Of a stretch of DNA of 64,000 nt, positions 8,585 through 44,700 are shown one piece after another; within the stretch, counting starts at the first letter, position 1; each line of letters starts with the position of its first letter. Where the stretch lies: positions 125,144-189,143 of the forward strand of contig DIYJ01000015.1 in NCBI GenBank assembly GCA_002428995.1. The letters run 5' to 3'. The DNA is from Flavobacteriales bacterium UBA6057 (GTDB taxonomy: Bacteria > Bacteroidota > Bacteroidia > Flavobacteriales_G > Salibacteraceae). Under the pieces are notes generated by a model that did no database searches, was not told the DNA's origin, and worked only from the letters and a program-made list of their open reading frames with translations. The position numbers and the translations under genes were made by a program.

Positions 8585-11500
8585 TTGGGAATTGACGATC
8601 TAAAACGGAAGTTTGAAAAAAGCCCGCAAATCACTGAATTTGACTTTGGGCCAGACCTCGCTTTGCCTGTTCGCCACCGGCTCAAGGGAATTGCCGGCTC
8701 TGCGCTGAGTTTTATTGTTTCCGCTTTATTCAGGAAACACGATGTGCATCACCTGCTCCTTTTCAACGATCGGGAAGAGGCGGCTTACTTCTACAACGAC
8801 CTTCAAAACCTGATCAGCCCAAATCGTGTGTTTTTCCTTCCCCACAGTGGCAAGAAGCCTTACGCGTTTGAAGAGGAGGATGAGCATGTCTCAGCGCGCA
8901 AGACAGAGTCTGAGAGCGGGCTGATGAGAGCAGAGGTGCTGAACGCAATCAATACCCGCAAGCGGCACTTTGTAATGGTGAGCTACGCAGAGGCTTTGAG
9001 CGAGCGTGTAGTCACAAAGAAGAGCCTGGCCAAGAATACACTGAGTGTACAGGTAGATGATAAGCTGTCGCTGGACTTTGTCAACGAGATGCTTTTCGAG
9101 CTGGAATTTGAACGGGTTGATTTTGTGCACAAGCCCGGTCAGTTTGCCATTCGGGGAGGCATTGTGGACATCTGGAGCTTTTCCAACGATCGTCCCTTTC
9201 GCGTGGAGTTGTTTGGCGATGAAGTAGACAGCATCCGAACGTTCGATCCGGTTTCGCAGCTTTCTGTCAAAAACCATCAGCACATCAACATCATTCCTGA
9301 TGTTCAGAAACAGGCGATGAAAGAGGTAAGGCAGACCTTCATGGAGTTTCTGCCGCAAAACACGGTGGTTTGGCTGAAAAACTTTGAGCTTGTTCAGGAG
9401 AAGATCGCCAGCTCTTTTGAAGAAGCGCAAGAGGCCTTTGAGGGACTGAGCAAAGAAGTAGAACACGTGCCTGCCGAAGATCTTTACCTCACCGAGCAGG
9501 TATTCCTTGATCAGTTGGCAGGCTTTACCCAGGTGGAATTTGATCGGCCATCGATGATGAAGCCGGATGTGGAAGTGAGCTTTCATCAATCGCCACAGCC
9601 ATCCTTCAACAAGAATTTTGATCTCCTGATCCGGGACCTTACAAACCACCAGAACAACCAGTTTAGAAACATCCTGTTTGCTTCAAACCCGAAGCAGATC
9701 GAGCGGCTTCACCAGATTTTTGACGACATCTTCAAAAACAAGGAGATGAAGGAGATTCCCTTTGATTTTGAGGGAGTCAACACGGCCATTCACGAAGGTT
9801 TCATTGACCATGACCTGAAAATCGTTTGCTACACCGACCATCAGGTTTTTGAACGCTACCATCGCTACAAACTGAAGGAAGGTTTTGCAGATGCAGAGCG
9901 GCAGATCACCCTCAATGAGTTGACCAACCTCCAGCCCGGAGACTATGTGGTTCACATTGACCATGGGGTAGGTGAGTACAGCGGTATTCAGAAGATTGAT
10001 GTCAACGGGAAGATGCAGGAGGCGATTCGATTGATCTATTCGGGTGGTGATGTGCTCTATGTAAGCATTCATTCGCTGCACCGCATCTCGAAGTATGTGG
10101 GCAAGGAAGGTACACCACCGAAGATCAACAAGCTCGGATCACAGGCCTGGCAAAACCTGAAGAACAAGACCAAGAAGAAGGTCAAGGAAATTGCCTATGA
10201 CCTCATTAAGCTTTACGCAGAGCGCAAGCTGAAGGATGGTCACGCGTTTGAGCCGGATACCTATTTGCAGACGGAGCTGGAGTCATCCTTTATTTATGAG
10301 GATACCCCTGACCAGCAAAAAGCGACCAAGGATGTGAAGGCGGACATGGAAAAGACCTATCCGATGGATCGCCTTGTATGCGGTGATGTTGGTTTCGGGA
10401 AAACCGAAATCGCCATTCGCGCAGCTTTCAAAGCGGCCACCGATGGCAAGCAGGTAGCAGTTTTGGCGCCTACCACCATCCTGACCTCTCAGCATTATAA
10501 GACCTTCAGCAATCGATTGTCTGAATTTCCTGTGAAGGTCGATTACATCAATCGCTTTCGAACGGCTAAGCAGCAGAAGGAAACCTTGAAAGCTGTGGCC
10601 GAAGGCAAAGTCGATATCCTGATAGGAACTCACCGCCTGGTAAGCAAGGATGTGAAATTCAATGACCTCGGTCTGCTCATTATTGATGAAGAGCAGAAGT
10701 TTGGGGTAGGGGTGAAGGATAAGCTGAAGACCATGAAGGTGAACGTGGATACGCTCACACTGACGGCAACACCGATTCCCAGAACCTTGCAATTTTCATT
10801 GATGAGCGCGCGTGATTTGAGCATCATCAATACGCCACCACCCAATCGCTATCCTGTTCAGACGGAATTGCACACCTTCAATGAAGCCGTCATCAAGGAT
10901 GCGATCTATTCTGAGCTCAGCAGAAACGGTCAGGTATTTTTCATTCACAACCGCATTCAGAACATTGGCGAGGTGTGCGCGATGATCAATAAGATCGTGC
11001 CGCAGGCCAAGGTTCAGTTTGCGCACGGCCAGATGGATGGTAAGCAGCTCGAAGAGATCATGATGGGATTCATCGATGGTGAGTTTGATGTGCTCGTTTC
11101 TACCTCTATCGTAGAGAGTGGGCTGGACATACCGAATGCCAATACCATCATCATCAACCAGGCGCAAAACTTCGGATTGAGTGACCTTCATCAGATGCGC
11201 GGCCGGGTGGGACGTTCCAACCGAAAGGCATTTTGCTACCTGCTCTGCCCGCCTTTGTCATCCCTGACTACCGAGGCGCGGAAGCGTTTGCAGGCCATTG
11301 AGCAGTTCAGCGACCTGGGCAGTGGGTTCAATATTTCCATGCGCGACCTTGATATCCGGGGAGCCGGAAACCTACTCGGAGGTGAGCAAAGCGGCTTCAT
11401 TTCAGACATTGGCTACGAGACCTATCAGAAGATCCTCGAAGAGGCGATGGAAGAGCTCAAGGAGACAGAGTTCAGAGATCTGTTCAAAGAAGAACAGGGT

Positions 11501-12653: not shown

Positions 12654-12824
12654 ATGCTGAAAAAGCTCCTCTTTGTTGTCAGTATAATCTCGCTGAGCAG
12701 TTGCGAAACAGAGGAGTGTGTGGACTGCGTAGACAATGCAGGGAATGTTTTTACGTTCTGTGATCCACCCGAGTCACCCATTGACTCTGTCTCTTGTGGA
12801 GACGTCTATACAAGTCGAAAATGA
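12654..12824 (+). CDS. Small Cys-rich lipoprotein (56 aa), hypothetical
   Basis: Internal ATG at 12654 gives MLKKLLFVVSIISLSSC (lipobox). Six Cys in the 39-aa mature part. Its TGA overlaps the ATG of the next gene (ATGA at 12821-12824). Confidence 0.45.
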   Translation: MLKKLLFVVSIISLSSCETEECVDCVDNAGNVFTFCDPPESPIDSVSCGDVYTSRK

Positions 12825-13309
12825 AGAACATTCTCATTGCTTCCCTAAGTCTGCTCACCTTGTTGAGCTGTGAGCGCGTGGTTGATGTTCAGGACCCTGT
12901 GCCGGAAGAGGTGGTCTATTGCTTTGCTGATGAGGTGCTTATCGGTGATTGGCGCACAGACTCAGTTTGGATCATCACGGAAGTTGATACGCTGGACTCG
13001 TTGATTGAAAACAGGCAGCCGGGTTTTTTCTACGATCTATCCGTCAATTGCGGAGATCAGAAAGAGCTTTTGCTGACTTACACTGGTTTTCACAACCTCA
13101 CAACCGTTGACGTTCGCTCTACGAACTATGAATCTTCTGACAGCACGCTATTTGCTTATGATCAGTTCGAAGATCAACAGGATACCTCCAAGGCAAGCTT
13201 TCGAATGCCATTCACCATCGTGAACGATACGCTGATGAACTGCACCCTGAAGCAGGACCTCGGCAACGGTCAGCTAAGCACCTACTTCCTCTTCTTTAAG
13301 TCGATCTGA
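12821..13309 (+). CDS. Lipoprotein, hypothetical
   Basis: MKNILIASLSLLTLLSC lipobox. The ORF-track start at 12794 is a TTG upstream of this ATG. Confidence 0.55.
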   Translation: MKNILIASLSLLTLLSCERVVDVQDPVPEEVVYCFADEVLIGDWRTDSVWIITEVDTLDSLIENRQPGFFYDLSVNCGDQKELLLTYTGFHNLTTVDVRSTNYESSDSTLFAYDQFEDQQDTSKASFRMPFTIVNDTLMNCTLKQDLGNGQLSTYFLFFKSI

Positions 13310-14028: not shown

Positions 14029-14613
14029 TTACCAGTCAATCTCGAACGATCCACCATTGAGAATGGCCGTTTCAGCCGGATCACCTTCGTTGATAAGATC
14101 CATGGGTGGCAGATCTGCAGTTAGTTTTCCGTTCGCGATGGTAAAATTGAGGTTTTCTCCTTTTGGACTCAGGAAGTTCTTGGACTCTAACGGATGCCCG
14201 GTGTTTATAAAGAAGCTGGTGTAGAAGTTCACCGAATCTGTCCCCATTGCCGGGAAGCGAGAGCTGCTAAAAGGAGCTGAGCCGCTTTGAGTCGGTTTGT
14301 CCTTGAAGGTCATGACGATTGCCAGGGTGCTTTCTGTGTTCCCGTCATTTCCCGTTTGATCCAACTGAGCTGCCGAACTGAAATTGACCTGATAACGATA
14401 AGCATTGGCATCGGGAGCGACAGAGTTGGCCGACATATAGAACGAATCTCCTTCGATGACTACATAGGTGGATGGGAGATCTGTGGGTTCCTCCGTTGGT
14501 GTGGTGCCAGGATTCGTGGTGTCATCATTGGTGTCGTCATCGTCTTTGTTGCACGCTGAAAAGGTGGTGAGCGCTGCAATGGCCAGGATCAGGTATCGGT
14601 TCATATCTCTCAA
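14029..14613 (-). CDS. Lipoprotein, hypothetical (Asp/Thr-rich linker)
   Basis: Signal and lipobox (LILAIAALTTFSAC), followed by NKDDDDTNDDTTNPGTTPTEEPTD linker. Confidence 0.6.
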   Translation of the reverse strand: MRDMNRYLILAIAALTTFSACNKDDDDTNDDTTNPGTTPTEEPTDLPSTYVVIEGDSFYMSANSVAPDANAYRYQVNFSSAAQLDQTGNDGNTESTLAIVMTFKDKPTQSGSAPFSSSRFPAMGTDSVNFYTSFFINTGHPLESKNFLSPKGENLNFTIANGKLTADLPPMDLINEGDPAETAILNGGSFEIDW

Positions 14614-14698
14614 TTTAAAGCGAAGCTATTCGCTTCGCTTCTGGCGTTGAATAAGGCATTTGACGTATTCTTGCTTCCCTCATCTGGTGTGTCACAAA

Positions 14699-14722
14699 CA
14701 AAAAAGGGGGCCGAAGCCCCCT
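14699..14722 (-). terminator. Rho-independent terminator for the Cys-rich paralog A gene
   Basis: GGGGGCCGAAGCCCCC hairpin with a T-run on the minus strand. Confidence 0.65.
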
Positions 14723-14746
14723 TGAGAAATGATATGCGATGATGCA

Positions 14747-15151
14747 TTATAAGATGTACACCACGTTTGGCGCTACAGAGAAATCTGCTACGAAAGGCCC
14801 GCAAATGCAGTGCGTTCCTCCCGCAACTGCCGGGAATGGGCAAAATCCTCCGGGTGGGCTCACACCGGTGCTTGGTCCGGGACATGGAGCTGTACAGGTG
14901 TTGTTTGCGGGCACTACGCGAGCTACATCCCAAACCCAGGTGCCAGGACCGCAGGGAGGAATAATAGTAGCGACACCCGGCAAACAGCATACAGGGCCGG
15001 ATACACATGTAAGACCGCAGCCACCGGGAGAGGCATAGCCATAAACCCAGAAGGCACAGTTAGTTCCGTTCTTCACCGTAAGGGGAACGGCTTGGGCATA
15101 CATCGCAGCGGTAATGAACAATGCAGCGCAAAGTAGAAGTAGTTTTTTCAT
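14747..15151 (-). CDS. Small secreted Cys/Pro-rich protein, paralog A (134 aa)
   Basis: Signal peptide MKKLLLLCAALFITAAMYAQA. 13 Cys. Clear homology to the 17763..18158 product (…IPPCGP.TW.W…CT..CP…SP.G…P.VAGG.HC.CG…ADF.V.P). Confidence 0.7.
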   Translation of the reverse strand: MKKLLLLCAALFITAAMYAQAVPLTVKNGTNCAFWVYGYASPGGCGLTCVSGPVCCLPGVATIIPPCGPGTWVWDVARVVPANNTCTAPCPGPSTGVSPPGGFCPFPAVAGGTHCICGPFVADFSVAPNVVYIL

Positions 15152-15215
15152 AGTGTGTTAGATTTAGTTTCTACCAAACTATGAACATGCGAAAATATAT
15201 CCAAGAAAAAACTTG

Positions 15216-15228
15216 ATTATTTGCGTTT
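15216..15228. promoter_or_regulatory. Shared 13-mer ATTATTTGCGTTT upstream of paralog A; its reverse complement is also present upstream of paralog B
   Basis: Exact 13/13 match to rc(18216-18228). Both copies lie about 58-77 nt upstream of their start codons. Confidence 0.4.
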
Positions 15229-15282
15229 GTTCATCTATAGATAGTAAACGCTTCGGAGCAGAAGAGCGCCTTCACCACGAAA

Positions 15283-15318
15283 CAAAAAAGGGCGACTCTC
15301 CTGAAGAGTCGCCCTTTT
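15283..15318 (-). terminator. Rho-independent terminator downstream of ALDH7-like gene
   Basis: GGGCGACTCTCCTGAAGAGTCGCCC hairpin with T-run on the minus strand. Confidence 0.65.
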
Positions 15319-15343
15319 GATATCAAAGGATTGAAGGTCTGGT

Positions 15344-16891
15344 TTAGAAATCGAACTTGATTCCTTGTGCCAGTGGAAGCTCAGTGCTCCAGTTGATGGT
15401 GTTGGTTTGACGTCTCATGTACGCCTTCCAGGCATCAGAACCGCTTTCGCGGCCGCCACCAGTTTCCTTTTCTCCACCGAAAGCTCCACCAATCTCCGCA
15501 CCGCTCGTACCGATGTTCACGTTGGCAATTCCACAGTCGCTGCCTCGATGGCTCAGGAAGGTTTCTCCCTCACGCATGTTGGTACTCATCAATGCAGAAC
15601 TCAAGCCTTGCTTCACACCGTTTTGCATGTTCAGCGCTTCCTCAAACGTGTCGTACTTCATCAAGTACAGGATGGGAGCAAAAGTCTCTTCCTGAACGAT
15701 TTCCCATGAGTTGTCAGCTTCCGCGATGGCTGGCTTCACGTAGCAACCGCTTTCGTAACCACTGCCTTCCAATACTCCGCCTTCTACTACAATGTTTCCA
15801 CCCTTCGAGCGAATAGCGTCAATCGCTTCGTTGTACATTCTTACGGCATCCGTATCGATCAATGGTCCAACGTGATTGTTAGCGTCCAATGGATCTCCGA
15901 TGCGGAGTTGCTCGTAAGCACTCGCAAGCGTGTTCTTGACCTCATCGTAAATCGAAGAATGAATGATCAGTCTTCGGGTAGAAGTGCAGCGCTGGCCGCA
16001 GGTTCCCACCGCTCCGAAAACAATACCCGGAATGGCGAGCTTCAGGTCGGCATGCTCACTTATGATGATCGCGTTGTTTCCGCCCAATTCAAGAATGGTC
16101 TTGCCCAATCTTCGCCCTACAGCTTCGCCTACTTTTTTACCCATGCGGATGGATCCCGTAGCTGAAACCAGAGGTACACGCGTATCGTTGGTCATCAACT
16201 CACCTACTTTGTAATCACCAACCACGAGCCCTGAAACACCTTCAGGTACTTCGTTGCGCTCAAATACTTCAGCAATGATCTTCTGACAAGCCACAGCACA
16301 CAACGGCACTTTTTCAGAAGGCTTCCAGATGCAAACATCACCACACACCCATGCGAGTGCACTGTTCCATGCCCAAACGGCTACCGGAAAGTTGAATGCG
16401 GAGATGATCCCAACAATTCCCAGCGGGTGATACTGCTCATACATGCGGTGCATGGGGCGCTCGCTGTGCATGGTAAGGCCATGAAGCTGACGAGAAAGAC
16501 CCACGGCAAAATCGCAGATGTCAATCATTTCCTGTACTTCACCCAAGCCTTCTTGCAGACTCTTTCCCATCTCATAGCTCACTAGCTTTCCAAGGGCGTC
16601 TTTTTTCTCGCGAAGCGCCTCACCGAACTGGCGAACTACTTCACCTCTTCGCGGTGCCGGCCACATGCGCCATGCTTCAAAGGCTTCCTGGGCCTTCTTC
16701 ACTGTCGCTTCATATTCTTCTGCAGAGCTTCCTTTTACACTGCCAATCTTCTTTCCATCTACAGGAGAAAAGGATTCAAACACTTCTCCGTTTGAGGCCG
16801 ACCACTGTGATCCTGTGGAGGTGCCTTCGTTCATTGCTTCAATGCCCAGTTCTTTCAAAAAATCTTCCATCATTCGATTTTGGTGGTGCAA
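15344..16891 (-). CDS. Aldehyde dehydrogenase, ALDH7 (alpha-aminoadipic/piperideine-6-carboxylate semialdehyde dehydrogenase)-like
   Basis: 515 aa. ALDH catalytic Cys (FGAVGTCGQRCTS) and Glu (LELGGNNAIII). The N-terminal region resembles the ALDH7/antiquitin family. Confidence 0.85.
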   Translation of the reverse strand: MHHQNRMMEDFLKELGIEAMNEGTSTGSQWSASNGEVFESFSPVDGKKIGSVKGSSAEEYEATVKKAQEAFEAWRMWPAPRRGEVVRQFGEALREKKDALGKLVSYEMGKSLQEGLGEVQEMIDICDFAVGLSRQLHGLTMHSERPMHRMYEQYHPLGIVGIISAFNFPVAVWAWNSALAWVCGDVCIWKPSEKVPLCAVACQKIIAEVFERNEVPEGVSGLVVGDYKVGELMTNDTRVPLVSATGSIRMGKKVGEAVGRRLGKTILELGGNNAIIISEHADLKLAIPGIVFGAVGTCGQRCTSTRRLIIHSSIYDEVKNTLASAYEQLRIGDPLDANNHVGPLIDTDAVRMYNEAIDAIRSKGGNIVVEGGVLEGSGYESGCYVKPAIAEADNSWEIVQEETFAPILYLMKYDTFEEALNMQNGVKQGLSSALMSTNMREGETFLSHRGSDCGIANVNIGTSGAEIGGAFGGEKETGGGRESGSDAWKAYMRRQTNTINWSTELPLAQGIKFDF

Positions 16892-16919
16892 AAGTAGGCA
16901 GCTTTTTCAGGCTTTTTCG

Positions 16920-17582
16920 CTAAAAAGATGCTTCAGTTGAGAGCAAGTATTGATTTAGGATTTCACTGATCTCGGCCGCTCTGCTCGAAACCATGAAATG
17001 GGGGCCGTTGGGAACGAGGTAATCGGCTTTTACGTAGCGGTGCGGGAAAATCTTGTCGTTCGTTCCGTGAATATGTCGGATGCCTGGAATGACCGTCCTG
17101 TTTTTCCAATTCAGCAGCTGATCAATGCTCCAGCGAAAGACTTCTGGATGTCCGCTGTTCAGGATTTCTCTGACACGCAAGCGCTGCTCTTTGGTCCGCG
17201 CACCAAAAGCATAGTAGATGGCTGGATAGTCCCGCATGATCAATTTGATGGGTGCGATGCGGTGGAGTCGGCTCCAACCAATCGCGCGGAAAAGGGCGGG
17301 CATTTCATCCACGGTTTTGACGGAACTGATCAGAACGGTCTTGTGAATGGGTGCAAGTTTGTTGATCTCAATGCTCATAATGCCACCAAAGGAGAGTCCC
17401 ACGAGCGCGGACTGTTCAGGATACTGAATGCCATCGAGCATGCGCTGTGCATAATGCTCCGTGCTTTCTTTGGGTTCAGGAATTAACCAGGGAAGATGGA
17501 TGAATTCGATCTCAGGATGGAGTTGAAGACGATCGAAGACACTGGCGCCCGTTCCGAGGCCGCTGATGAAATAGGTTTTCAC
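16920..17582 (-). CDS. Alpha/beta hydrolase fold protein
   Basis: 220 aa. Nucleophile elbow GLSFGG. Confidence 0.7.
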   Translation of the reverse strand: MKTYFISGLGTGASVFDRLQLHPEIEFIHLPWLIPEPKESTEHYAQRMLDGIQYPEQSALVGLSFGGIMSIEINKLAPIHKTVLISSVKTVDEMPALFRAIGWSRLHRIAPIKLIMRDYPAIYYAFGARTKEQRLRVREILNSGHPEVFRWSIDQLLNWKNRTVIPGIRHIHGTNDKIFPHRYVKADYLVPNGPHFMVSSRAAEISEILNQYLLSTEASF

Positions 17583-17608
17583 AGGGCCAAATTAAGGTGT
17601 AGATGATG

Positions 17609-17685
17609 GAAAAAAGTTCGGCTTTGCCCGATGATAACCGACACCACTTGACTAAAAATGTCGGGTCACTCGAACAAAGCCGAAA
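17609..17685 (-). terminator. Long compound stem-loop plus T6 (terminator / structured 3' UTR of paralog B)
   Basis: Outer 11-bp stem GTTCGGCTTTG / CAAAGCCGAAAC encloses inner CCCGA/TCGGG pairings. T6 follows on the minus strand. Confidence 0.5.
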
Positions 17686-17762
17686 CGGGCAGTGAGAATC
17701 TTTGACGAGGGGATAGAAGATTGCGGGCGTTACAGATCCATCCTCATGTCTTGAAACTCACG

Positions 17763-18158
17763 CTAGTAGATCGCCAGCGATCCTGGTATGACGGTGAAAT
17801 CAGCCGTGTAGGTAATTCCACAAACACAGTGAATGCCTCCCGCAACAGGGGGCATGCAACCGGAGGGACTTACCATTACCGGAGGACAAACTTTCGTGCA
17901 AGTCTGATCCGTTGGCATCACAATGGCATGTTCCCAAATCCAGTTTACGGGTCCGCATGGTGGAACCGGAATCACGGCTCCTGCGGGTACACAAATCGCT
18001 GGAGGATTGCAGTTTGGCATGACAAAACAGCCAGGCGCGGCCTGGAAGGTTACCAGATAGTCACAACCGGTGAAATTCTGGATGAGCATGCCCGGTGGTT
18101 GAGCATAAGAGACGGCACTTAAACAAAGCACCGTTAAGAGTAACATGAGTTTTTTCAT
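17763..18158 (-). CDS. Small secreted Cys/Pro-rich protein, paralog B (131 aa)
   Basis: Signal peptide MKKLMLLLTVLCLSAVSYAQ. 12 Cys. Homologous to the 14747..15151 product. Confidence 0.7.
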   Translation of the reverse strand: MKKLMLLLTVLCLSAVSYAQPPGMLIQNFTGCDYLVTFQAAPGCFVMPNCNPPAICVPAGAVIPVPPCGPVNWIWEHAIVMPTDQTCTKVCPPVMVSPSGCMPPVAGGIHCVCGITYTADFTVIPGSLAIY

Positions 18159-18215
18159 GGTGATTGTGGTTTGGTTTACATCAAAATAAGGTTATAAAAA
18201 ACTAACGTCAAAGTA

Positions 18216-20420: not shown

Positions 20421-21707
20421 TCAGCGATAGAGAATGCGATGCGTAGCTGCGCCCTTCGCATGTTTAAGCTGTAGGATGTAGACACCGGACGGTAGCGAAG
20501 ACAAGTCAATCGATGCGCTGCTGCTTTCTACGGTGATGAAGGTTTGACCAGTTACCTCCTGTCCACTGACATCGAAGAGTTGCATTTCCAGATCCTTCAA
20601 GACTCCAGTCCAATGAAGTCGGGTAAGGCCATTGGTGGGATTCGGGTAGAGTCCCAGAATTTCAGATTGCTCAGGATTATCAGTGCCAACAACTACCGTA
20701 TTCATTGACAATCTTGAAACACCCAATCCATGCCCGACCCAAACAACACCTTCCTCATTGCTGCTGATGGAAACAAGGTCTGAAGAGTTTAGCAAGAGGT
20801 TGAGTGCAGGCAAGTCGTTGGAAATCGGCTGGAAATCTACACCAACACCTTTAGCTGTTGCCAGCCATTCTACGTAGTAGTTACCATAGTCTACAACGTC
20901 AATTGCTCGTATTTCTCTTGAGGGTAGATTGTTGAAGAAGCTGAAGTTTGAGAAGGTGAATTCCGTATTCGCATTGATGGAAATCAACCCGGCAGTGCCG
21001 GAAGCAAACCACACGATTCCATTCTCATCGGCTGTAATGGCGCTGATTTGATCCCTGAAGATGTTGACTGTTTGAGGGGTGTAGTTTCTCCACTGGCTGC
21101 CATTAAAACTGATGAGTCCATTCGATTCAGTGGCAATCCAAAGCTTTGAATCCGCACCTGATGCGATACCGTTGATCTCTGAAAGGTCGATTACATTCCA
21201 GTAGCTGTAGGCAGGGTCAAAAGCTGGTGTGCTTACGGTTAGGTTATGAATTTGATTCGATACCGCGATCCAAACACGACCGTCAGGCCTGAAAGCCATT
21301 CCGTAGACGTAGTCGTGAGGCATTCCCAGCTGACCGGTTGCAGTGCTTTCCCAAGTGTTGTTGGCAGCGTCAAACCTTGAAATGCCCTTGTCATTCGGAG
21401 CGCCCAGTTGCTGGCCATTATGGTAGGTCCAAATCACTCCGTTGCGTTCAATGACGCCTGCGCAGCCATTGGCGCCAAGGCCTGAATTGAGGGTGTCATA
21501 ACACACCCAAACACTATCCTTGAAACGACAGATGCCTGCATCCTCGGTTCCGACCCAAATAGATCCGTCTTCAGCAGCCACTACTTCCGTTACATTATTG
21601 GAAGCCAGGCCCGAGTTAAACGAAGTATAGTTGGTGACTACTTGCGCAAAGGCTTGCGCTGAAAAGGCCAACAGATAACTAAGAATGAAAAGGCGAATGG
21701 AGCGCAT
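20421..21707 (-). CDS. Secreted beta-propeller (two-component-regulator-propeller-like repeats) protein with T9SS C-terminal sorting domain
   Basis: Signal peptide. Repeated ...DGSIWVGT.. / ..GIVWFASGTAGL.. blades. C-terminus LYPNPTNG...GVYILQLK matches the Por secretion tail. Confidence 0.75.
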   Translation of the reverse strand: MRSIRLFILSYLLAFSAQAFAQVVTNYTSFNSGLASNNVTEVVAAEDGSIWVGTEDAGICRFKDSVWVCYDTLNSGLGANGCAGVIERNGVIWTYHNGQQLGAPNDKGISRFDAANNTWESTATGQLGMPHDYVYGMAFRPDGRVWIAVSNQIHNLTVSTPAFDPAYSYWNVIDLSEINGIASGADSKLWIATESNGLISFNGSQWRNYTPQTVNIFRDQISAITADENGIVWFASGTAGLISINANTEFTFSNFSFFNNLPSREIRAIDVVDYGNYYVEWLATAKGVGVDFQPISNDLPALNLLLNSSDLVSISSNEEGVVWVGHGLGVSRLSMNTVVVGTDNPEQSEILGLYPNPTNGLTRLHWTGVLKDLEMQLFDVSGQEVTGQTFITVESSSASIDLSSLPSGVYILQLKHAKGAATHRILYR

Positions 21708-23566: not shown

Positions 23567-24976
23567 TTAATTAGGATTCACCTCCAACAACTCCCACTCC
23601 TTCTGGAAGAAAAATTGCTCCTCGCCAAAGGCGGGCTTCAGGTCATCCAACCAGATAGCTTCCGGGTCGTATTTCGCGAAGAATGGGCGATGTACCCAGT
23701 TGGCTACGCGGCCTTGCAAAAAGCGGAGCATGAACACCTTCTCGCCATGGATTTCGGTGATGCCGAGAATTTGAACCTTCCCAGGATCAGCGCTCATGCT
23801 TGGCCCTCTTACCGTTCTTGAAACTCCGCTCACCTGCTGGTAGGCTTTTTGGAAAATGCGCCATGCACGTCCCAGTGGAACTGCAAAGTATTCCTGCGCT
23901 CCGGTATCGCGCGCCAGAAACATGTAGTAAGGAATGATACCTAATCTGACCTGCTCTTTCCACATATCTCGCCATGCTTCAGGAGTGTCATTGATATTCT
24001 TCATGATGGGCGACTGCGAACGAATCTGCGTCCCCGTGGCGCGGATGCGCTTGATCGCCTCTTTCACACCCTCGGTCTTGAGCTCAGCCGGATGGTTGAA
24101 GTGCGCCATAAATGCCAGGTGCATACCTGAGTTGTTCACCTTTTTGAACAGTTCCATCACCTCGTCCGCATCATTGTCGTGCGTGAAGCGATAAGGCCAG
24201 TAGCCGAGTGCTTTGGTGCCAATGCGAATGGTCTGCACATTGTGTGTTCCCATGCTTTCGAGGATCGGCTCCAGGTACATTTTCAGGCGATCGATCTTCA
24301 TGATCATAGGATCGCCACCGGTGAATAGCACGTCTGTGATCTCTGGATGCGCTTGAAGGTATTTCACCATCAGCTCGGTTTCGCGCATGGCAAACTTTAG
24401 CTCGTCCATGCCCACAAACTGCGGCCATCGGAAGCAGAAGGTGCAATAGGCGTGGCATGTCTGTCCCTGCTGTGGGAAGAAGAGCATCGTTTGATCATAC
24501 TTATGCTGAATACCTGTCAGCTTTACATCCTCGATCATGGGAACGTTGTGCTCCATCTGTCCAGCAGGATGTGGGTTAAGCTGCATCCTGATCTCGTTGG
24601 CAACCTCCTTGATCTCCTTCTTGTTCTTTCCAGCTTTCAATGCATCGGCCATTTGGTCGAAATGAGCTTTGCTCAGCATTTCGCGCTGTGGGAACGTCAG
24701 AATGTAAATGGGATCATTGGGTACATTCTCCCACTCAATCAATTCATCGATGACGTAGTTGTTTGCCTTGAAAGGGAGAACGTTTCCCACCACTTCAATG
24801 GCAAATTTTTCCTCTTCGCTCAGAAATTGCTGTACTTGAGGTATGTTTCGAAAATTGTGGAGGCCGAAGACTTTGTACTTGATTTCTTCCATAAACTTTT
24901 GATTCGGGATCGTGCGAGCGGGTCGCTTTGAGGCTGCGAAGAAAGTCAATGAAAGGCAAACACTGATCCCTAGCAA
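23567..24976 (-). CDS. KamA-family radical SAM aminomutase (lysine 2,3-aminomutase-like)
   Basis: CxxxCxxC cluster CHAYCTFCFRW. KamA-type C-terminal PLP-binding region. 469 aa, with about 60 extra N-terminal residues. Confidence 0.8.
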   Translation of the reverse strand: MLGISVCLSLTFFAASKRPARTIPNQKFMEEIKYKVFGLHNFRNIPQVQQFLSEEEKFAIEVVGNVLPFKANNYVIDELIEWENVPNDPIYILTFPQREMLSKAHFDQMADALKAGKNKKEIKEVANEIRMQLNPHPAGQMEHNVPMIEDVKLTGIQHKYDQTMLFFPQQGQTCHAYCTFCFRWPQFVGMDELKFAMRETELMVKYLQAHPEITDVLFTGGDPMIMKIDRLKMYLEPILESMGTHNVQTIRIGTKALGYWPYRFTHDNDADEVMELFKKVNNSGMHLAFMAHFNHPAELKTEGVKEAIKRIRATGTQIRSQSPIMKNINDTPEAWRDMWKEQVRLGIIPYYMFLARDTGAQEYFAVPLGRAWRIFQKAYQQVSGVSRTVRGPSMSADPGKVQILGITEIHGEKVFMLRFLQGRVANWVHRPFFAKYDPEAIWLDDLKPAFGEEQFFFQKEWELLEVNPN

Positions 24977-35758: not shown

Positions 35759-38700
35759 TCAATAAGATCCATCTTCTTGCACAGGACCTGAAATGCCTTC
35801 TGGTCTGCCACCTGGGTCAGCCATAGGGGGATGCCAATCGTCATTTTCTGTTCCGCCTGCTTCGGTATGCGCTGATTCAGAACGGTTCGATATATCATTG
35901 AGCATGCGCTGCATCAGAGCCTCAACCGTGAAAGACGGTGTTTGCAAAGAGAGACCGGGCATCTCAAAGTCAACATCTATTGTCAAACTACGAGGCAATC
36001 CTCCAATATTACTTTGACCCATCCCGGAAAGGTTACCAACCGAATAGCTTCCGTTCAGTTCAGTACCGAAAATTCCGGGCCGCGTGAAATTTGGTCCCAA
36101 AGACGAAGCCCCTAATCCTTTCTTTAGCGGAGTCTTGTACTTGGTTTTTTGTGTAACAGGTTGTACCAGTGTGTGCTGTTGCCCCGGATAAAGTCCAAAT
36201 CCTTTAGGAGTTTTTATAGGTGTCGTGGGTGGTACGTAGCCCTTTGAATCTTGCTTGAACTGCTTCATCACCGCCTTATTCTCTCGGGACTCAGCCTTAT
36301 CTACAAATGACTTCCATGTATTTCCCTCAGTACCAAATTTGTAAGTACCCGAAAAGCTGTACGAGTCGATAGGCCTATCATCCATGCTTTCGTCTTCGAA
36401 TGTCTCTTTGGTTTCGGACTTAAAAGAGAGTTTTTGTTTCGTCTCTCCCGCCAAAAACACAAAGCTTGGATAGACTCTCATGGTTGCCCTTGTTTCCAAG
36501 GTTAATCCACCACCATAGGTTGTGTTAATCCCGGGCCCTTCTTTTGGTTTGCCATACTTCCATGAGAATTTAGTCTCAGCTCCAAAAGTCAAATTGGCTT
36601 GCTCTACTGAAAACCCTCTGCCAACCGTGAGAGTTAATCCTATGCCAGCACCAAGCCATGGCGGAGGATCAAAAGAATGAAAACTGACACCACTTAATCC
36701 TTCTGATTCAACATTGGCGACAGGATTATTATGCGCGAATTGATAAGGGGTAAGCTCCGGGAAATCCGGTGCAGCCGGATCAACCGCAAAAAACCGCGAC
36801 AACCTGGGGTCATGCATTCTGAATGAATAGTTGGCGGAGTTGCCGTCTCCCTTGAACTCATCATCCATTTCTTGCCCATTGATGCCGTACCTGTAATCCT
36901 CCACGGCACCCTTCCGACCCGGCATAGCCATGCCATAAGGATAATAATCCGTGTAGCGCATCACATCGGGCAAGTAGCCTACGGCAACATCTTCGGTAAA
37001 GCTGCCATAGATGTCGCCTGGACCGCTGATGGTGATGCTGCCCAGTGTAAACTTGCCGCCTGGGCTCCCTTGCCCCGCCCAAAAGAGCTTGGTTTTAGTA
37101 GAGGTGGCCGTAAAGGTGTAGCTATAGCTTCCGGTACTAAAGATATCCAGCAAGCCTAGGTTTCCACCTCCGGAGCAGCTCTGTGCGCGGGCTTTTACCA
37201 CTGGCACGGTTTGCTCCAGTATGTCAAAGCTTACCGTATAGGTCTCACCTGTTTCGGTAGCGATGGTGAGAAAGGCCAGGAAGTTGGTGCTGGAAGGATG
37301 TTCCACCGCCAAGTCAGAATTGCCATCGGCATTTACATCAGCAATGGTAGCGGTGGTGGTTCCTACTGGAGATAAAAACCAGGTGCCGGGAGCGTCACAG
37401 CTGCTGTTGGCAATCACAAAATCGCTGTCCAGATCATACTCGTCTGGCACCAGTATTTTACGGTCGGTGATCACCTCCTTTACGTTGCCGAGATGATCGC
37501 CCAACTCGTACATTTTCTCACCAATCATGCGATGGTAGACCACTGGTGCATCAGCTACTCCATATACGTCTCCCGGGCCTGTAATTTTCACATTGCCCAA
37601 GGTGAAGTTGCCCGTGCTGCCCCATCCTCTGAAGTAGACGCGGCTTTGTGTGGCATTTGCGGTGAAGGTGTAGCTATACACTCCTGGGGCTACTACGTTG
37701 AGAGAACCCAAAGAGCTACCTCCAATCCCACAACCGCGTGCCTGGCTGTATACCCATGGCACTGTCTTAGCTACCACTTCGAAGCTTACCGTGTAGGTTT
37801 CTGTTGGAATGGTGTTGAAGGTATGTGCCACTCTGAAGTTGGTGGCCGTTGCATTCATCACCGTTAAGTCCGTGTTGCCGTCCATATCCACATCGCTGAA
37901 TCCGTGGGTGGTGCCTGCGGTTTCGGTCATGTACCAGCTGCCAGGCGCCCCGCACAATGCATCTTCCAGGAAGTCATCAAAGCTGTAGGCATACGAGTCT
38001 TCCGTGATTTCTACGCTGCGCGTATCTAAACCATGGCGCTTGGAGCCATAAATAGTGGCTTCTGTGCGGTGTAGTTCGGGTTGACTCTCGGTCTTTTGAT
38101 AGATGGCCATTGGCACCCCATTGGCGTCCATGCCATACCATGTTTTGTTCCACTGCGCTTCGGGTAGAATATTGCCTCCCATATCGCGCGGCATTTCCAC
38201 CTTTAAGATGCGATTGCCCATCGGGCCGTACTCAAAATAAAGGTCAGGATCTGTGGACAATCCATCGCGCCAAACGCGCTTCAGTTTTCCGTTAGGATAC
38301 CATTCCAGGTAACCGATTCCTTCCTGAAGGTCGCTCTTTAATGCACCGTCACTGTGGTATTGGTAGTTGCCCGGCAATTGCCCATTTTGGATGTCATCAT
38401 AGGCAGTGCCTGCAATGGCGTCCTCCACATAATCCAAGCGGTTATTCGTTTCATAGGGCAACAGCGCATCGTCATAGGTGAACTGATCCATGGCATTGAT
38501 GGTAGCGCCAAAGGTGTAGGCACGCCTGTCAAGCGCGGTGATATTGCCATTCGGATCGTAGTCCACATGCACTTCGTAATCGCCTAACGTGTGGCTACCG
38601 CTGGCGGTCATGTTTTGCCGCGCAGCGTTTACGAACGAGTTCAACTCTGTGATGTCGCTGGCGCTGTGCACATGACTCTCTTTGAAGCGGTGCAACTGGT

Positions 38701-41700
38701 CGTAGCGATAAGCTGTCCCGGTCACGTCAATAGGTAACTCGTCCAGGTCCATCATGGCCGTGGTCACGCCTGCTATGTTGCCGTTGAAGAGCTCGTTCAA
38801 GTCGGTTTTGTAATCACCGGTGGTAGCTGCTAAAAACTGATTCAACGGATCGGTGTCGATGGACTGGTAATCGCCTTCGTAATAGTCCAGCGTAAAGGCC
38901 AGCGCATCCTGTGCCACGGTTGAACTGAGGTGTGAAAGCGAACCGGTGAGCTGGCGACCGTCTTTGCCCATGTCTTTGGTAGGGTCGAGCACTGCGCTGT
39001 TCAGGCCTTTGATCCAGCCTTGCAGGGTGTAGGCATAGTCAGCGCCCTGCACATCCATTTCACCGAGCTCTGTTCGAGCCAGCTTGCCATCGAGTCGGTA
39101 GTTGTACTCCGCATCGCGGTCCCAGATGAAACCGTCTTTCGAGGTGTGTACTTCCTTCAGTCGGTTGTCGGCATCGTAGGTGTAGCGATGGCTGTATTGA
39201 TCGAGCTTACCTTGTTGAAAGTGTGCGTAGTGCGGCAAACCGCTCAACAAGTCATACTCATAATTGCTCTGGAAGAACTGTCGGCCATCGGCCACCAAGT
39301 CTGCGTTTTCTTGCAAGTGTGAACGCACATTTCCGTGCACATCATAGGCATAGTGGTAGAGGTAATCCGGATCTTCCAGAACCCAGCTGGGCACCATGTG
39401 TGTGTAGCCTTCCACAATGGACACAGAGGATACACGATTGCGTATGTCACCCTGCGCTGCTTCACCGAATGCATCCAGTGCGGCCGTGCTGGTTGGATTG
39501 GAGTAATTGACCCGCATGACCTGGTTACGGTAGCGATCTTCCCCAACTGCCGACAATTGGTTGAACCAAGTGGCGAATTGGGAAGGGTCCTTGGCCTTGG
39601 CCTTGGTGAATGGAGTAGGTTGCACAAACTCACCCATTTCAACCGGTCTGCCCAAGTCATCAAATTGAGTGTAGGACCACGCTTGGGTTGCATAACCCGT
39701 ACCCATCGGGTCGCCTGTGATGACGTTATGCGTCAACTCGGCTTGTCGTGCATTTTGGCTCACAATCAATCGGCCCACCTGATCGTACCAAAGTTTGGAG
39801 GAACCACCATCGGGTGTCACCGTTTCAATAGGCTGATTCAGGGCATTGTAATAATGGTAGGTTACAAAACCGTGATTGTTGTAGTGCTCGGATCCGCCAT
39901 CACCATTGCGGTAATCCTGGAGCTCATCAATTTCTGCATCATCCAATGGTTGTACACCTTTTGGTGGAACTGTTTTTACAAGGTTGCCAGCGCGGTCATA
40001 GTACATGAGCGTGTAGTGGTAGCGGTTGGCTAAGTAGTTCATGTTGTAGGTTTCGTCCACACCACGGCATGTCTCGATGTAGTTCGCTATGAATTCCTCT
40101 TTGGCGGTTTCCAGGTAAATGCCATAAGCTGCATCGGCTTCCAGCTCAGCATTCGTGATGAGTGCATCGATGCAGTCATCTTCGATCTCAGGAATGTAGT
40201 TCTCGCACAGCGTGTTCCCGCCAAAAACGTCAAAACAGCGGTTAATGACCAAAACACTAATCTCGATGGGGTCACCACCCTCCGGATCTTCGACTAAAGC
40301 TGTAAGGTGAAAATGTACGGTGAGGGGTGCTGGGCCTGTTGTCAGGTCGGCCGGAGTCAAGTAGATTCCGGTGAATGAAATCACATGTTCGAACACTTCA
40401 TCGATGGGCCAACCTCCAAAACTTTCAGGGGTCAGCACAATGGAGCCTTTCGGGCAGAAGTCACAATCCGTAATTCCGGGAATATCCGTGCCCAACGGAA
40501 AGCTCAGTGCTCCCGTGATCGGGTTGACATAGGGTTCGTAGTAAAAAGGCACGACCTCTTCATCGCAGGTGTGGAACTCACTTTCGAAGTATTCAGGCAA
40601 CGGAGGATAGCCGCTACCATACGTTCCGGTGGTGGTCAAACCATCATCCACCAACCTGTTGAGCAGGACTTTGAAGTCCAGTGCCTCTTCTGAAAAGCCT
40701 TCTGTTATGGTAGCGCCCGCATCCAGCGAATCGCACATTTCCATGAAGGTCATCAGCGAAAAGTAGTCGAAGCCGGTACCGTGGGTTTCATTGACATACG
40801 AAACGAACACCACGGGGTCTTCCTCGATGCTTGCGGTAGGATAGGTGGTGAGGAAGCTCGTGATGGCCGCGTCAAGCTGGTCACAGTCGATGCAACCGTC
40901 ACCGTAGCAACCGTAGTCTGTTACGGTGGTGGTATCTGCAAGTTCGGCCATTTGGAGACCAGTCCATGTGATGCTTCCAGGTGCATACGTAGCCGCCAAA
41001 GGCACTGCAGCTATTTCGGCACAAATCGCACGATCGCGGCAAAAGTTCACAGGTATAAATCCGTACAAGGCTTCAAAGTCATCTTCATCTGAAGCGGCTA
41101 AGAGCTTGTTGCAGGCACAAGTGTCGAGCGCAGGAATGATGGTCACTTCACACACAGGCGAAGGCCGGTCGATGAGGTGGTGTGTACATTCCAGCACCAC
41201 AGGATCTACCAGGTGGTTTTTGATCACTTCCTCAAACGATGATAATTCAACCATGGTCGCCCCATCATCGCACTGACTTGGGAACGGGTAGTCGGCACCA
41301 CAGCCGCCCGTACATACCGTGATCAGATCAGTACGTACAGCATCGTACGTTGCCTGACCGGGTTCCCACGTTTCTCCGAAGGGAAGGAAAGGAACACAGC
41401 CTTCCAATTCAAACATCCAGCCATCGGCCATGGTTTCGCAGGCGCTCTGGCAATAGTCATTGATGTCCGCTTCCACATCCATTTCCAAATCATCCAAAAT
41501 GGTGGGGTCTGTCATCATCTGGATGAGCGGGTAGGGCGCCATTTGATCGTACATCATGAAGCGTTTCGCCCTGGTGGTATAATCCGCACAGCTCACCATA
41601 CATGGTGGTATGACGTTACCGATACACTTTACACAGTCGTTGTAGGTCATGGTACGGCCTTCCATTACCACACCCAGAATGATGTTTCTGCGGGCCAGGT

Positions 41701-44700
41701 AAAGATCTCTGAAGGCAATCCATTGCGCATCCAGATCGCAGGTGCTGGTACCAAAGGTGGAACCATCCGAAAGTGCGGAAGCCATTTCGTAGAGTGTGTT
41801 ACCTCCACTTACTCCGAGCATGTATTGGCAAACCTGTTCGTAATCGTTGGATCCAAACCCAGCATAGCCATCGTCATAGATGTAGTCTTCGTCATCCAAA
41901 ACAGTGCTGAGCGGTCCATTGATCAACGTGACCAATGGATCTTCGTTGGAAGCAATGAACGGATCAGGTGAGCCTGCAAAGCATGCGGGATAATCTCCTG
42001 GGTCAACAGGAGTGATATAGCCAGCAGCTGAAGCTTCGGCATAAGTTTCCGTCAGTTTAAAATCGGTGGCGTAGTCAAAAACTCCTGAGTATAGCTCGCA
42101 GAATCGATAGGTCTCGTATTCAGGGTGCGCGCCTATTAATTCTTCTGCCCACCAGTCTTTCCAGAGCAATGCAAACTGGCTGAGGGGTATGGTCGCGTGA
42201 TTTACACGCACCTCGTCTCCAAAAACGTTGGTAGTCATGGCTTCGGTGACTCCATCTATCTCGTAAAAGATGACATCACGCCAGCTGTAAAGCATAGGAT
42301 CGGCTGAATTGAATACGCTGAGCCCTGAACTTCCGCTGATATCACCGTATTGGCCTCCAGGGCTTACATCGGCCAGCAGTATCGGGCGCATTTGTGTGCA
42401 TAGGGGTTGGTTCTCGCAGTCTTCAAGGTATTCGGTGCGCAAGGTGTTGTATACTGCTTCATTTGTTTCGCCCGTCTCAAGCGAATATTCCTCCCAGGTG
42501 CCATACTCGTAGTAAAAGCTCATTTCACAGGGGCTGCCCTCATAGCAGTCGCTAAAGTCTATCTCCATTAAAGCATCTGCCAGGAAGTTGGAGTAGGGGA
42601 TCAGGCAGTTGGTGTCCGCCAGTTCCACGTATTGATCCCAGTAATACTCGATGGGTTCGTGCATCACGCGGAGTGTTTTCGTCACATAGTATTCTCCAAA
42701 CCGAGGAAACTTGAGGGTGAAGGTGCTGGGGTGATCATCCGAAAAACGAACCGTGTCACCACAAACTGAATCTAGGGGTAGCAACTGACCCACAGTATCA
42801 ATCCAGACTGATTCGATCATGTCAGTGCCATCGCTCAACTGGCACGCATCTGTGAACGCTCCTTCGGTGGGCGTTACCTTGAATTCAATCTCGTAAATAC
42901 AATCGAAGCAAAAGCCTGGAGGCAGGCAGTCGGTAAATTGCTCGGCTGCAAAATCGTAGTTAAACGTGTAGACCTGAGCGGGGTCAGTCACTGCAATCTT
43001 TTGCTCCACAAGCAAGATTCCTTGATCAAGCAATTCGGGGCTATCGCTGGTGAAATCGACAAGGTTGGTATGAATGGGAGTTTCGGGGCCATTGCCTTCA
43101 ATCGCTTCTAAACCAGCCGGAGCTGATCCTTCGAGGTAGCTGATGACGGTGCGTCCCATGTTGTCCAGGATGGTTACGCTCACCTGGCCGTGCACATCTT
43201 TGGTGATGACGCGTGTGTAATTCACATAGTCTGCGGCTTCCGAGCCGATGAAGCGGTCTACCTCATCTGGATCTTGTTGAGCTTCGATGATCACTTCAGT
43301 ATAATGTCCCGCAGGATCGAGCTGATGATCAGGACCAACACCGCCTGAACGTCTTACTCTTCCAGTGGGGTCGTTGGTATAGTGAACCTGTGCGAAATTG
43401 AATCCTTCTGATTCGGGTACAAAGGCCTCAACTCCTTCTTGATTGGGGTTTTGGTGGCTGTAGTACTTGGCGGAACCCATAGAGTGTTCTGAACTCATCG
43501 GTAATGCGGCCTTTGGGCCACAGTCACCGAGCATGGCTTCATCTGAATGGAAGACGTGCTTATCGTATTGAGTATCATGGTCCAACATGTTCAGGTTCTC
43601 GATATACCCGAGGTTGGTTTCGCCTACCGGACTACCCATCACACCGATGGCCGGTCGGCCGTAGAAATCGTAGAGGGCTGAACCCACAATGAGTTCATCC
43701 TGGCTGCTGAGTTGCGATACGCTCTGACGCGGCTTCATGGTGCCATCTACATAGGTAATGCTGGTGTTTCGCTTCCCTTCTTCCACAAAGGCCATGGAAG
43801 CGCTGTAGCTCATGTTGTTGTCTTCGTGTGGGGTGACGGTGATTTTGCACGTGCCACAGTAGTCGTTTACTACACCATTGTCCACATACCCCCAGGCTCC
43901 ATTGGTGTTCCAGAGTCCATCGATGTCATGGTCAATGAAATCGGGAATGCGACCCACACCGCGATAGCGAACCAGCAGGTATCCATCGCCATAGATCATA
44001 GGGATGCGGTATTCATTGCCGGTTACGCGAACACGAGAGGCGTTGTTCTCAAAGTCGTAATTCACGGCTGTTTCTGTCGCTACTACCGGGTCGCCTGCAA
44101 CTTCCTCGCCCGTGTAACCATTCACCCAGGTCCACTCCAGGTCGTATTGATCGGCTCCATCGAGCGATGGCCAGGTCACAATCCAATTGCTGGTGCCGAT
44201 CTCCTCGGCAATGGTCATCGCATCCGATGGAATCACGTTGTAGGCAAAAGCATCGAAGTATTCTGTTTGGATGGATGCATGCAGAAAAAGGTTTTCGCGG
44301 TCGACCGCCACCGGGGTGTAGGTCACTCCACCATCGCTGGATTTATGCAATTCAATATCCCTTAAATCCATGCTGAGGGCGCCATTGAAGGTGTAAACCT
44401 GCCGGTCCTGATAGGCCATATCTGGCGCATAATCCACAAAGAGTTCAATGCCGGAGGTCGTGTTCGATACCAGTATGCCGCCCTCTATTTCATCCCAATC
44501 GAGCGTAAACACGATTTTGTAGTGAAACTCAGGGTCGATGAGGTGCATGGTCTCATCAATACCAAAGGTGATTTCGTTGGTGATTTGGGTAAACCCAAAG
44601 TCAGACTCCCATCCTGGAAGGATGTCTGGATGCTTGCTGGAAGCTACACTGAGGTCCAGCGTAAGATCCAACCCGGTATTGCTTGCTTCTTGGGTTTCTG

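Follow-up and report, generated by a model that had tools for sequence, protein, structure and literature searches.

The DNA analysed here is the whole 64-kb stretch (hereafter the window) from contig DIYJ01000015.1 of Flavobacteriales bacterium UBA6057, and the analysis is concerned with two genes of its minus strand, designated copy A and copy B, which encode small Cys- and Pro-rich proteins and which bracket a two-gene operon. An earlier reading of the same DNA (the original prediction) had reported two open reading frames (ORFs) of 134 and 131 aa at these positions, and both are present in the ORF list:

Copy A gene, 14747..15151, minus strand: precursor of 134 aa, mature protein of 115 aa starting from Gln20.
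Copy B gene, 17763..18158, minus strand: precursor of 131 aa, mature protein of 112 aa starting from Gln20.

Copies A and B are considered, from their sequences, as old paralogues. They share 42% amino acid identity end to end on 135 columns (BLASTP, E=1e-23), and the pairwise alignment thus agrees with the paralogy first proposed. At the DNA level only one 29-nt stretch can still be aligned, and the duplication is therefore considered as old. Their divergence (41-42% protein identity) is comparable to the spread among family members of other lineages. The local duplication proposed earlier can thus be kept as far as paralogy is concerned, but not as a recent local event. No third family copy was found in the window, using tblastn and a six-frame scan with the family profile (hidden Markov model, HMM). 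Copy A has an orthologue (P0003, locus L001) with 73% identity, located at the same position after the aldehyde dehydrogenase (ALDH) gene of the bracketed operon. Nonsynonymous divergence (dN) between these two orthologues is 0.19, with saturated synonymous divergence (dS), and lies between the values of the neighbouring ALDH (0.10) and hydrolase (0.30) genes; the copy A gene is therefore considered as real and under purifying selection. The idea that the hydrolase-ALDH block is enclosed by a mobile element or composite transposon was rejected, the sole notable repeat between A and B being that of their 50-nt 5' regions, with no flanking inverted repeats.

Both proteins belong to a family that became apparent when 1.84 billion cluster representatives were searched exhaustively with a HMMER profile: 54 of these proteins were retrieved at E<1e-3, of which 16 also pass E<1e-10. 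Nearly all members are 125-145 aa long and are matched over their full length, and copy B matches the family profile at 1.4e-59. Three long repeat proteins (P0024, P0039 and P0046) were discarded as spurious, their repeated matches covering only a hairpin-like motif of ~30 residues; in P0039 (683 aa), INPFTCTNGGQYTVWVYDY occurs five times and mimics the first beta-hairpin of the family, LTVKNGTNCAFWVYGYA. Word-indexed protein searches using A, B and a 35-sequence profile returned only A and B themselves, P0003 and three distant members, and peptide patterns exact to the window genes retrieved no relative in the genome and metagenome contig collections, from which the source genome is absent. 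No meaningful match was obtained in Pfam, NCBIfam, PHROG or PADLOC for A, B or the family members, and a search of PDB sequences with the family profile gave chance matches only. The earlier remark that no domain could be recognised is in line with these searches, since neither Pfam nor NCBIfam explains either protein. The window proteins are on record at NCBI, JGI, ENA and Logan, and the source annotation of the family proteins goes no further than 'hypothetical protein'. The nearest loci come from Flavobacteriales and Bacteroidetes metagenome-assembled genomes (MAGs). As far as sampled, the family is confined to Flavobacteriales-like Bacteroidota, mostly metagenomic; it is rare and without a name, and apparently restricted to this phylum.

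Both precursors start with a signal peptide of 19 residues (MKKLMLLLTVLCLSAVSYA in copy B), made of MKK, a hydrophobic core and a small residue (n-, h- and c-parts) and followed by Gln20, the first residue of the mature chain. The AlphaFold2 (AF2) model of copy B displays this region as a helix (residues 2-19). The A/S/G-Q junction is invariant, Gln20 being found in 35/35 and 37/37 aligned members. Under the Bacteroidetes Q-rule, substrates of signal peptidase I (SPase I) carry Gln at position +1, which is cyclised to pyroglutamate (PMC5837995, PMC10653852). Judged by sequence, copies A and B have both features of such substrates (a signal peptide and a predicted mature Gln at +1), and they are thus read as exported Sec/SPase I substrates that fit this rule. 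They differ from bacterial lipoproteins in having no lipobox, with Gln as the mature N-terminus and the first mature Cys at precursor position 32. They also differ from cargo proteins of the type IX secretion system (T9SS), which carry a C-terminal sorting domain (CTD) of ~75-100 aa, the mature chain of the family being too short for a cargo plus a CTD. Searches with the T9SS CTD models (PF18962 and NCBIfam, including TIGR04183) gave no match at E<=1 for A and B and none at E<=0.1 for the 35-37 family members; the same search does detect a neighbouring 428-aa protein of the window.

The original prediction had counted 12-13 cysteines per protein. The totals are in fact 12 in A and 11 in B, with one of them in each case inside the signal peptide, so that the mature chains hold 11 (the 10-Cys framework plus an extra residue that forms a CC doublet) and 10, respectively. 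The CC doublet is confined to copy A and P0003, and exactly 10 mature Cys are present in 25 of 35 members. In the alignment of these 35 members, Q20, N28, C56, C87, C91, C101 and C111 are invariant and C32, W75 and C113 nearly so; the scaffold motif first noticed in the two window proteins was correctly read and is also kept across the family. When framework cysteines are lost they are lost jointly, C50 with C68 in 4/4 cases and C32 with C113 in 2/2. Because Cys positions vanish in pairs, five disulfides per mature chain are inferred, which would include C32-C113 and C50-C68 (copy B numbering). The Sec signal, the invariant Gln and the 10-Cys framework together uphold the earlier description of the pair as exported, disulfide-rich mini-proteins with signal peptides.

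Other readings of the conserved residues were considered. Binding of a metal cluster by Cys and His is disfavoured, given that the number of Cys is even, that they are lost in pairs and that the location is extracytoplasmic. A link to a radical-SAM maturase was discarded because the radical-SAM genes of the window and of locus L014 are not homologous, and because the joint loss of cysteines favours disulfides. The gene concerned in the window (23567..24976, minus strand) is a 469-aa ORF with a weak, sub-threshold radical-SAM match and no homologue in the fetched loci, L014 included; the radical-SAM gene of L014 lies near member P0010. The conserved N-x-[ST], which could be read as an N-glycosylation site, sits in the turn of the first beta-hairpin of the model and is taken as structural. 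O-glycosylation in Bacteroidota uses the motif D-[ST]-[ALIVMT], and no such motif was seen by eye in A or B.

AF2 models built with the family alignment reached a mean confidence (pLDDT) of 93.1 for B and 93.4 for A, with a predicted TM-score (pTM) of 0.82. In both models the nine beta-strands follow each other in an identical order, the signal peptide being the only helix, and an Ig-like beta-sandwich of nine strands is predicted for the mature chain. In composition, the mature proteins are unusual: charged residues (DEKR) number 4 in A (3.5%) and 5 in B (4.5%), versus 13-32% in other window proteins; Pro makes up 15-16% and Cys 9% of residues, and AVILMFWYC together 50-52%. The grand average of hydropathy (GRAVY) is +0.62 in both mature chains. 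The window pair would thus be as apolar as a membrane protein. Across the clade of the window proteins, GRAVY ranges from +0.4 to +0.8 with 3-5% of charged residues; the means for the whole family are 10% DEKR and 2.7% K+R, with a pI of ~4.6. The family is best described as a variant, unnamed so far, on the theme of small secreted beta-sandwiches that are stabilised by disulfides.

The genes and signals lying between and around the two copies are as follows:

Two-gene operon between the copies, 15344..17582, minus strand: hydrolase and ALDH7-type genes, 28 nt apart.
ALDH7-type L-piperidine-6-carboxylate dehydrogenase, 15344..16891, minus strand: NCBIfam equivalog, 834.6 bits versus a cut-off of 730.
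Alpha/beta hydrolase, 16920..17582, minus strand: Abhydrolase_6 at E=1e-4, just under the cut-off; the L001 orthologue carries PF12697.
Strong terminator after the ALDH gene, 15286..15318, minus strand: 15-bp stem and T-run; inverted repeat I3 (14 nt, perfect).
Intrinsic terminator after copy A, 14694..14723, minus strand: GC-rich 8-bp stem (hairpin 14723..14704), GGGGGCTTCGGCCCCC, then a T-run.
Intrinsic-terminator-like element after copy B, 17610..17684, minus strand: extended hairpin 17684..17617, then CUUUUUU; inverted repeat I11.
5' region of copy B, 18139..18188, minus strand: ~30 nt upstream plus the first codons; direct repeat D1.
5' region of copy A, 15132..15181, minus strand: partner of the copy B stretch in direct repeat D1.

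The ALDH terminator lies between the hydrolase-ALDH operon and copy A and separates them, and the hairpin after copy B has a minimum free energy (MFE) of -35.3 kcal/mol (z -4.65; 0/200 shuffles fold as well). Given the terminator hairpins after ALDH, copy A and copy B, both family genes are therefore separate transcription units: copies A and B are each monocistronic, with their own 5' region and terminator. The own terminator claimed earlier for each gene was accordingly found, as a hairpin followed by a T-run or U-run. The 50-nt 5' regions paired in direct repeat D1 are 70% identical, and that of copy B holds a TAxTTTG box ~20 nt before the ATG, possibly a Bacteroidota -7-like element. Right after the copy A terminator starts a 194-aa lipoprotein-like ORF (14029..14613, minus strand), which resembles Riean_0653 and NigD-type lipoproteins only weakly and below threshold.

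The NCBIfam and Pfam matches listed above bear out the identities that had been proposed for the flanked genes, an ALDH7-like dehydrogenase and an alpha/beta hydrolase. Copies A and B could be thought to cooperate with these enzymes, e.g. by serving lysine or pipecolate catabolism as binding or delivery factors in the periplasm. The genes are adjacent and on the same strand in the window, and L001, whose ALDH is 85% identical, keeps the order hydrolase-ALDH-copy A orthologue but has no copy B upstream. Against this, strong terminators isolate each unit, both enzymes are without signal peptide and so presumably cytoplasmic, and none of the other family loci holds an ALDH or this hydrolase. Furthermore, L012, a Flavobacteriales MAG locus syntenic with the window, holds dnaG (73% identical), the hydrolase and the ALDH (81% identical) without any family gene. 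Such cooperation is therefore given almost no credence and can be regarded as largely refuted already: the bracketing of the ALDH7/hydrolase operon by A and B is incidental, with no functional tie.

Two further observations were made in L012. The hydrolase orthologue is split there into two overlapping ORFs by a frameshift (9962..10632), which is either a pseudogene or an error of MAG assembly. A downstream 171-aa lipoprotein-like ORF (window 12794..13309, plus strand; L012 13121..13636, minus strand) looks conserved by eye and has the same orientation relative to ALDH/hydrolase in both; if it is indeed common to the window and L012, synteny would reach beyond dnaG-hydrolase-ALDH, though L012 is without family genes.

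Approximately 11 independent family loci were sampled. Divergent paralogues lie close together in 4 of them (the window, L008, L016 and L017), the last three holding two members each, 0.1-1.6 kb apart. In L008, one member directly follows dnaG (DnaG 72% identical) and the second lies 1.6 kb further on, with a T9SS-cargo gene between them, on the opposite strand. In L016, a PhzF-family gene separates two members that share only 27% identity, and in L017 two members are directly in tandem, 102 nt apart, a third one (P0010) being located elsewhere in the same 3.04-Mb genome. The ALDH/hydrolase bracket of the window is thus one accidental instance of a recurrent proximity of paralogues.

Single copies are found in several other contexts. 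In divergent lineages (L009/L010 and L018), P0008 and P0019 are located just upstream of the rpsL-rpsG-fusA cluster (L009 10001-10417, L010 136-552, L018 4332-4730); this position may be a conserved one, with possibly high expression. Other single copies adjoin T9SS cargo genes (L003/L004 and L019) or lie near a T2SSE/secretin cluster (L005), and further contexts are those of L014 and L020. The T9SS-cargo genes, recognised by their Por_Secre_tail domain, are L003 10572-12389, L008 1388-2512 and L019 6539-7876, and the window has one as well (20421..21707), 2.3 kb from copy B. These neighbours have only the sorting domain in common. T9SS cargo genes are abundant in Flavobacteriales, and in T9SS-rich genomes their adjacency to family genes could be due to chance. 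Genes for IS1595 and IS1 transposases and an integrase-like gene were seen near P0018 and P0023 (L019 4868-5797; L003 12916-15027), which fits an accessory, mobile neighbourhood. Across the family loci, no conserved partner gene was found.

Elsewhere in the window, two giant ORFs are arranged in tandem on the minus strand (35759..44785 and 44798..50965). The first (3008 aa) matches DUF6443 only and the second (2055 aa) has no Pfam match; giant ORFs also stand beside P0023 in L003. A plus-strand gene of the window (51272..54970) encodes a 1232-aa hybrid sensor with TPR repeats, HisKA, HATPase, a receiver domain and an AraC-type HTH.

Two other functional explanations were considered. According to the first, the family would be made of periplasmic inhibitors or immunity proteins, in which a compact disulfide-locked sandwich would shield the cell envelope by binding a hydrolase that comes from outside or is made by the cell itself (such as a protease, a lysozyme or a contact-dependent toxin). 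Proteins of this kind include ecotin, the PliC/PliI/PliG lysozyme inhibitors, chagasin-type inhibitors and Tsi immunity proteins. Copies A and B are small and Sec-exported, with no outer-membrane targeting signal; their family keeps its scaffold while its loops vary, and it is patchy, multi-copy and accessory, with giant DUF6443 or RHS-like ORFs present in the window and near P0023. Yet in none of the ~11 loci is a cognate toxin or hydrolase gene adjacent, PADLOC, Pfam and NCBIfam give no inhibitor or immunity match, an almost charge-free surface would be unusual among soluble periplasmic inhibitors, and some members adjoin housekeeping operons (rpsL, dnaG). An inhibitor or immunity role is thus considered as unlikely.

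According to the second explanation, which had been raised in the original prediction, the proteins would be secreted bacteriocin-like toxins or signalling peptides. The precursors carry a Sec/SPase I signal and no double-glycine leader, and their product is a folded sandwich of 112-115 aa (112 aa in copy B) and not a peptide. No C39-ABC exporter, immunity gene or maturase is present in the ~11 loci, nor does any of them have a nearby gene for processing, for ABC export or for a MACPF partner, and no aegerolysin match was obtained in Pfam. This part of the original prediction is not supported, such a toxin or signal being held as very improbable.

The models of A and B were also compared with known structures. 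Foldseek searches gave nothing significant against the PDB (best E 0.07, TM<0.5) nor against viral models. From the models, the nearest structural neighbours would be small lipid-, membrane- or ligand-binding sandwiches, namely NttC, aegerolysins and cytolysin domain 4. NttC of Legionella is a secreted Ig-like protein of ~108 aa with one helix, ten strands, a single disulfide and a buried hydrophobic cavity (PMC7325957). The family would differ from it by its nine modelled strands, the absence of helix and its five predicted disulfides. NttC is moreover exported by the type II secretion system of Legionella pneumophila, whereas the family belongs to the Bacteroidota, a different phylum; genes for T2SSE, secretin and PilN lie near one distant member only (P0022, L005), and none was identified near the window copies. 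The Pfam NttC model (PF24268) gave 17.3, 15.1 and 12.9 bits with P0012, P0013 and P0010, versus a gathering score of 27. As these matches span only profile positions 1-35 of 130, that is the signal peptide and first strand, they are therefore considered as artefacts. PF24268 does not match copies A and B, and the search of PDB sequences with the family profile did not retrieve 6sjt (NttC). NttC would accordingly be the closest analogue at the level of the modelled fold only, with no sequence relationship.

The aegerolysins (OlyA6, RahU, Cry34Ab1), cytolysin domain 4, Nakanori and C2 are lipid-binding sandwiches as well, with no Pfam match in the family (none with PF06355 for aegerolysins) and no significant Foldseek match. 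Aegerolysins have neither a disulfide framework nor a signal peptide, and no MACPF or other partner gene was found near the family loci. With thaumatin-like proteins, including the five-disulfide xylanase inhibitor TLXI, only a part of the larger thaumatin domain superposes; the Cys spacing differs from that of the family and there is no Pfam thaumatin match.

Fungal hydrophobins and BslA of Bacillus resemble the family in another respect, as small, secreted, multi-copy proteins with a conserved Cys scaffold and otherwise low conservation, and the window clade is likewise very apolar and of low charge. BslA is Ig-like (PMC5532214; BslA is also described in PMC7615278). A surface-active protein of this type, either released or exposed at the cell surface, would self-assemble at hydrophobic-hydrophilic interfaces into an amphipathic film, and it could affect cell-surface hydrophobicity, attachment to particles or biofilms, or gliding. 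The mature length of ~112 aa, the Cys framework conserved in otherwise poorly conserved chains, the several paralogues per genome, the GRAVY and charge values of the window clade, the Ig-like sandwich and the adjacent surface (T9SS cargo) protein genes in L003, L008 and L019 all agree with such a film. On the other side, hydrophobins have the pattern C-CC-C-C-CC-C with four disulfides, and this 8-Cys pattern is absent from the family, which has 10 Cys with another spacing and no Pfam hydrophobin match. Without a T9SS CTD no passage over the outer membrane can be identified, the distant members are far less apolar, and the adjacent T9SS cargo genes share only their CTD. A film-forming role thus appears rather improbable. 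A bolder form of it would make the family the first hydrophobin-like class from a two-membrane bacterium: pyroglutamate-capped, five-disulfide, almost charge-free sandwich amphiphiles, reaching the surface by a route needing no T9SS CTD. In marine or aquatic Flavobacteriales, the two neighbouring paralogues would co-assemble on the outside of the cell or at particle-water interfaces. This form is considered as quite improbable.

The likeliest function, held tentatively, is that of an extracytoplasmic, very stable module binding a hydrophobic surface or ligand. It is proposed because of the near-zero charge and high apolar content of the pair and of the lipid- or ligand-binding nature of the nearest folds. 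The precursor would be exported by Sec and cut by SPase I, exposing Gln for pyroglutamate capping, and the site of action of the mature protein would be the periplasm, the outer membrane or the cell surface, where a protease-resistant, disulfide-locked sandwich would bind a membrane leaflet, a lipid or an interface. Since neighbouring divergent paralogues are repeatedly retained, the active form may be an oligomer, built from one copy or from both. A role as an adhesin, one of those suggested originally, or at the surface is possible.

Several points weigh against a hydrophobic-binding module. Extreme apolarity is a trait of the window clade, the distant members being 10-18% charged with a GRAVY near 0. 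No conserved partner gene backs a lipid or membrane role, and annotation points to no function. As no route over the outer membrane is evident, a role confined to the periplasm would fit just as well. In about two thirds of the sampled loci only one copy is present within 10 kb, and the idea of a hetero-oligomer is weakened by this. The remaining probability is assigned to functions beyond those listed.

The gain is modest at the level of annotation: an unnamed family is defined, with a Cys framework and a confident fold model, as a candidate entry for Pfam or NCBIfam, and misleading associations with the ALDH7/hydrolase operon and with NttC are removed. To our knowledge, oxidative folding and export routes other than the T9SS are poorly known in Bacteroidota. 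If the proposed hydrophobic-binding module holds true, the Bacteroidota would contribute a protein scaffold that is very small, highly stable and almost without charge, and one would have to ask how these bacteria fold so apolar a protein with five disulfides and bring it into their envelope.

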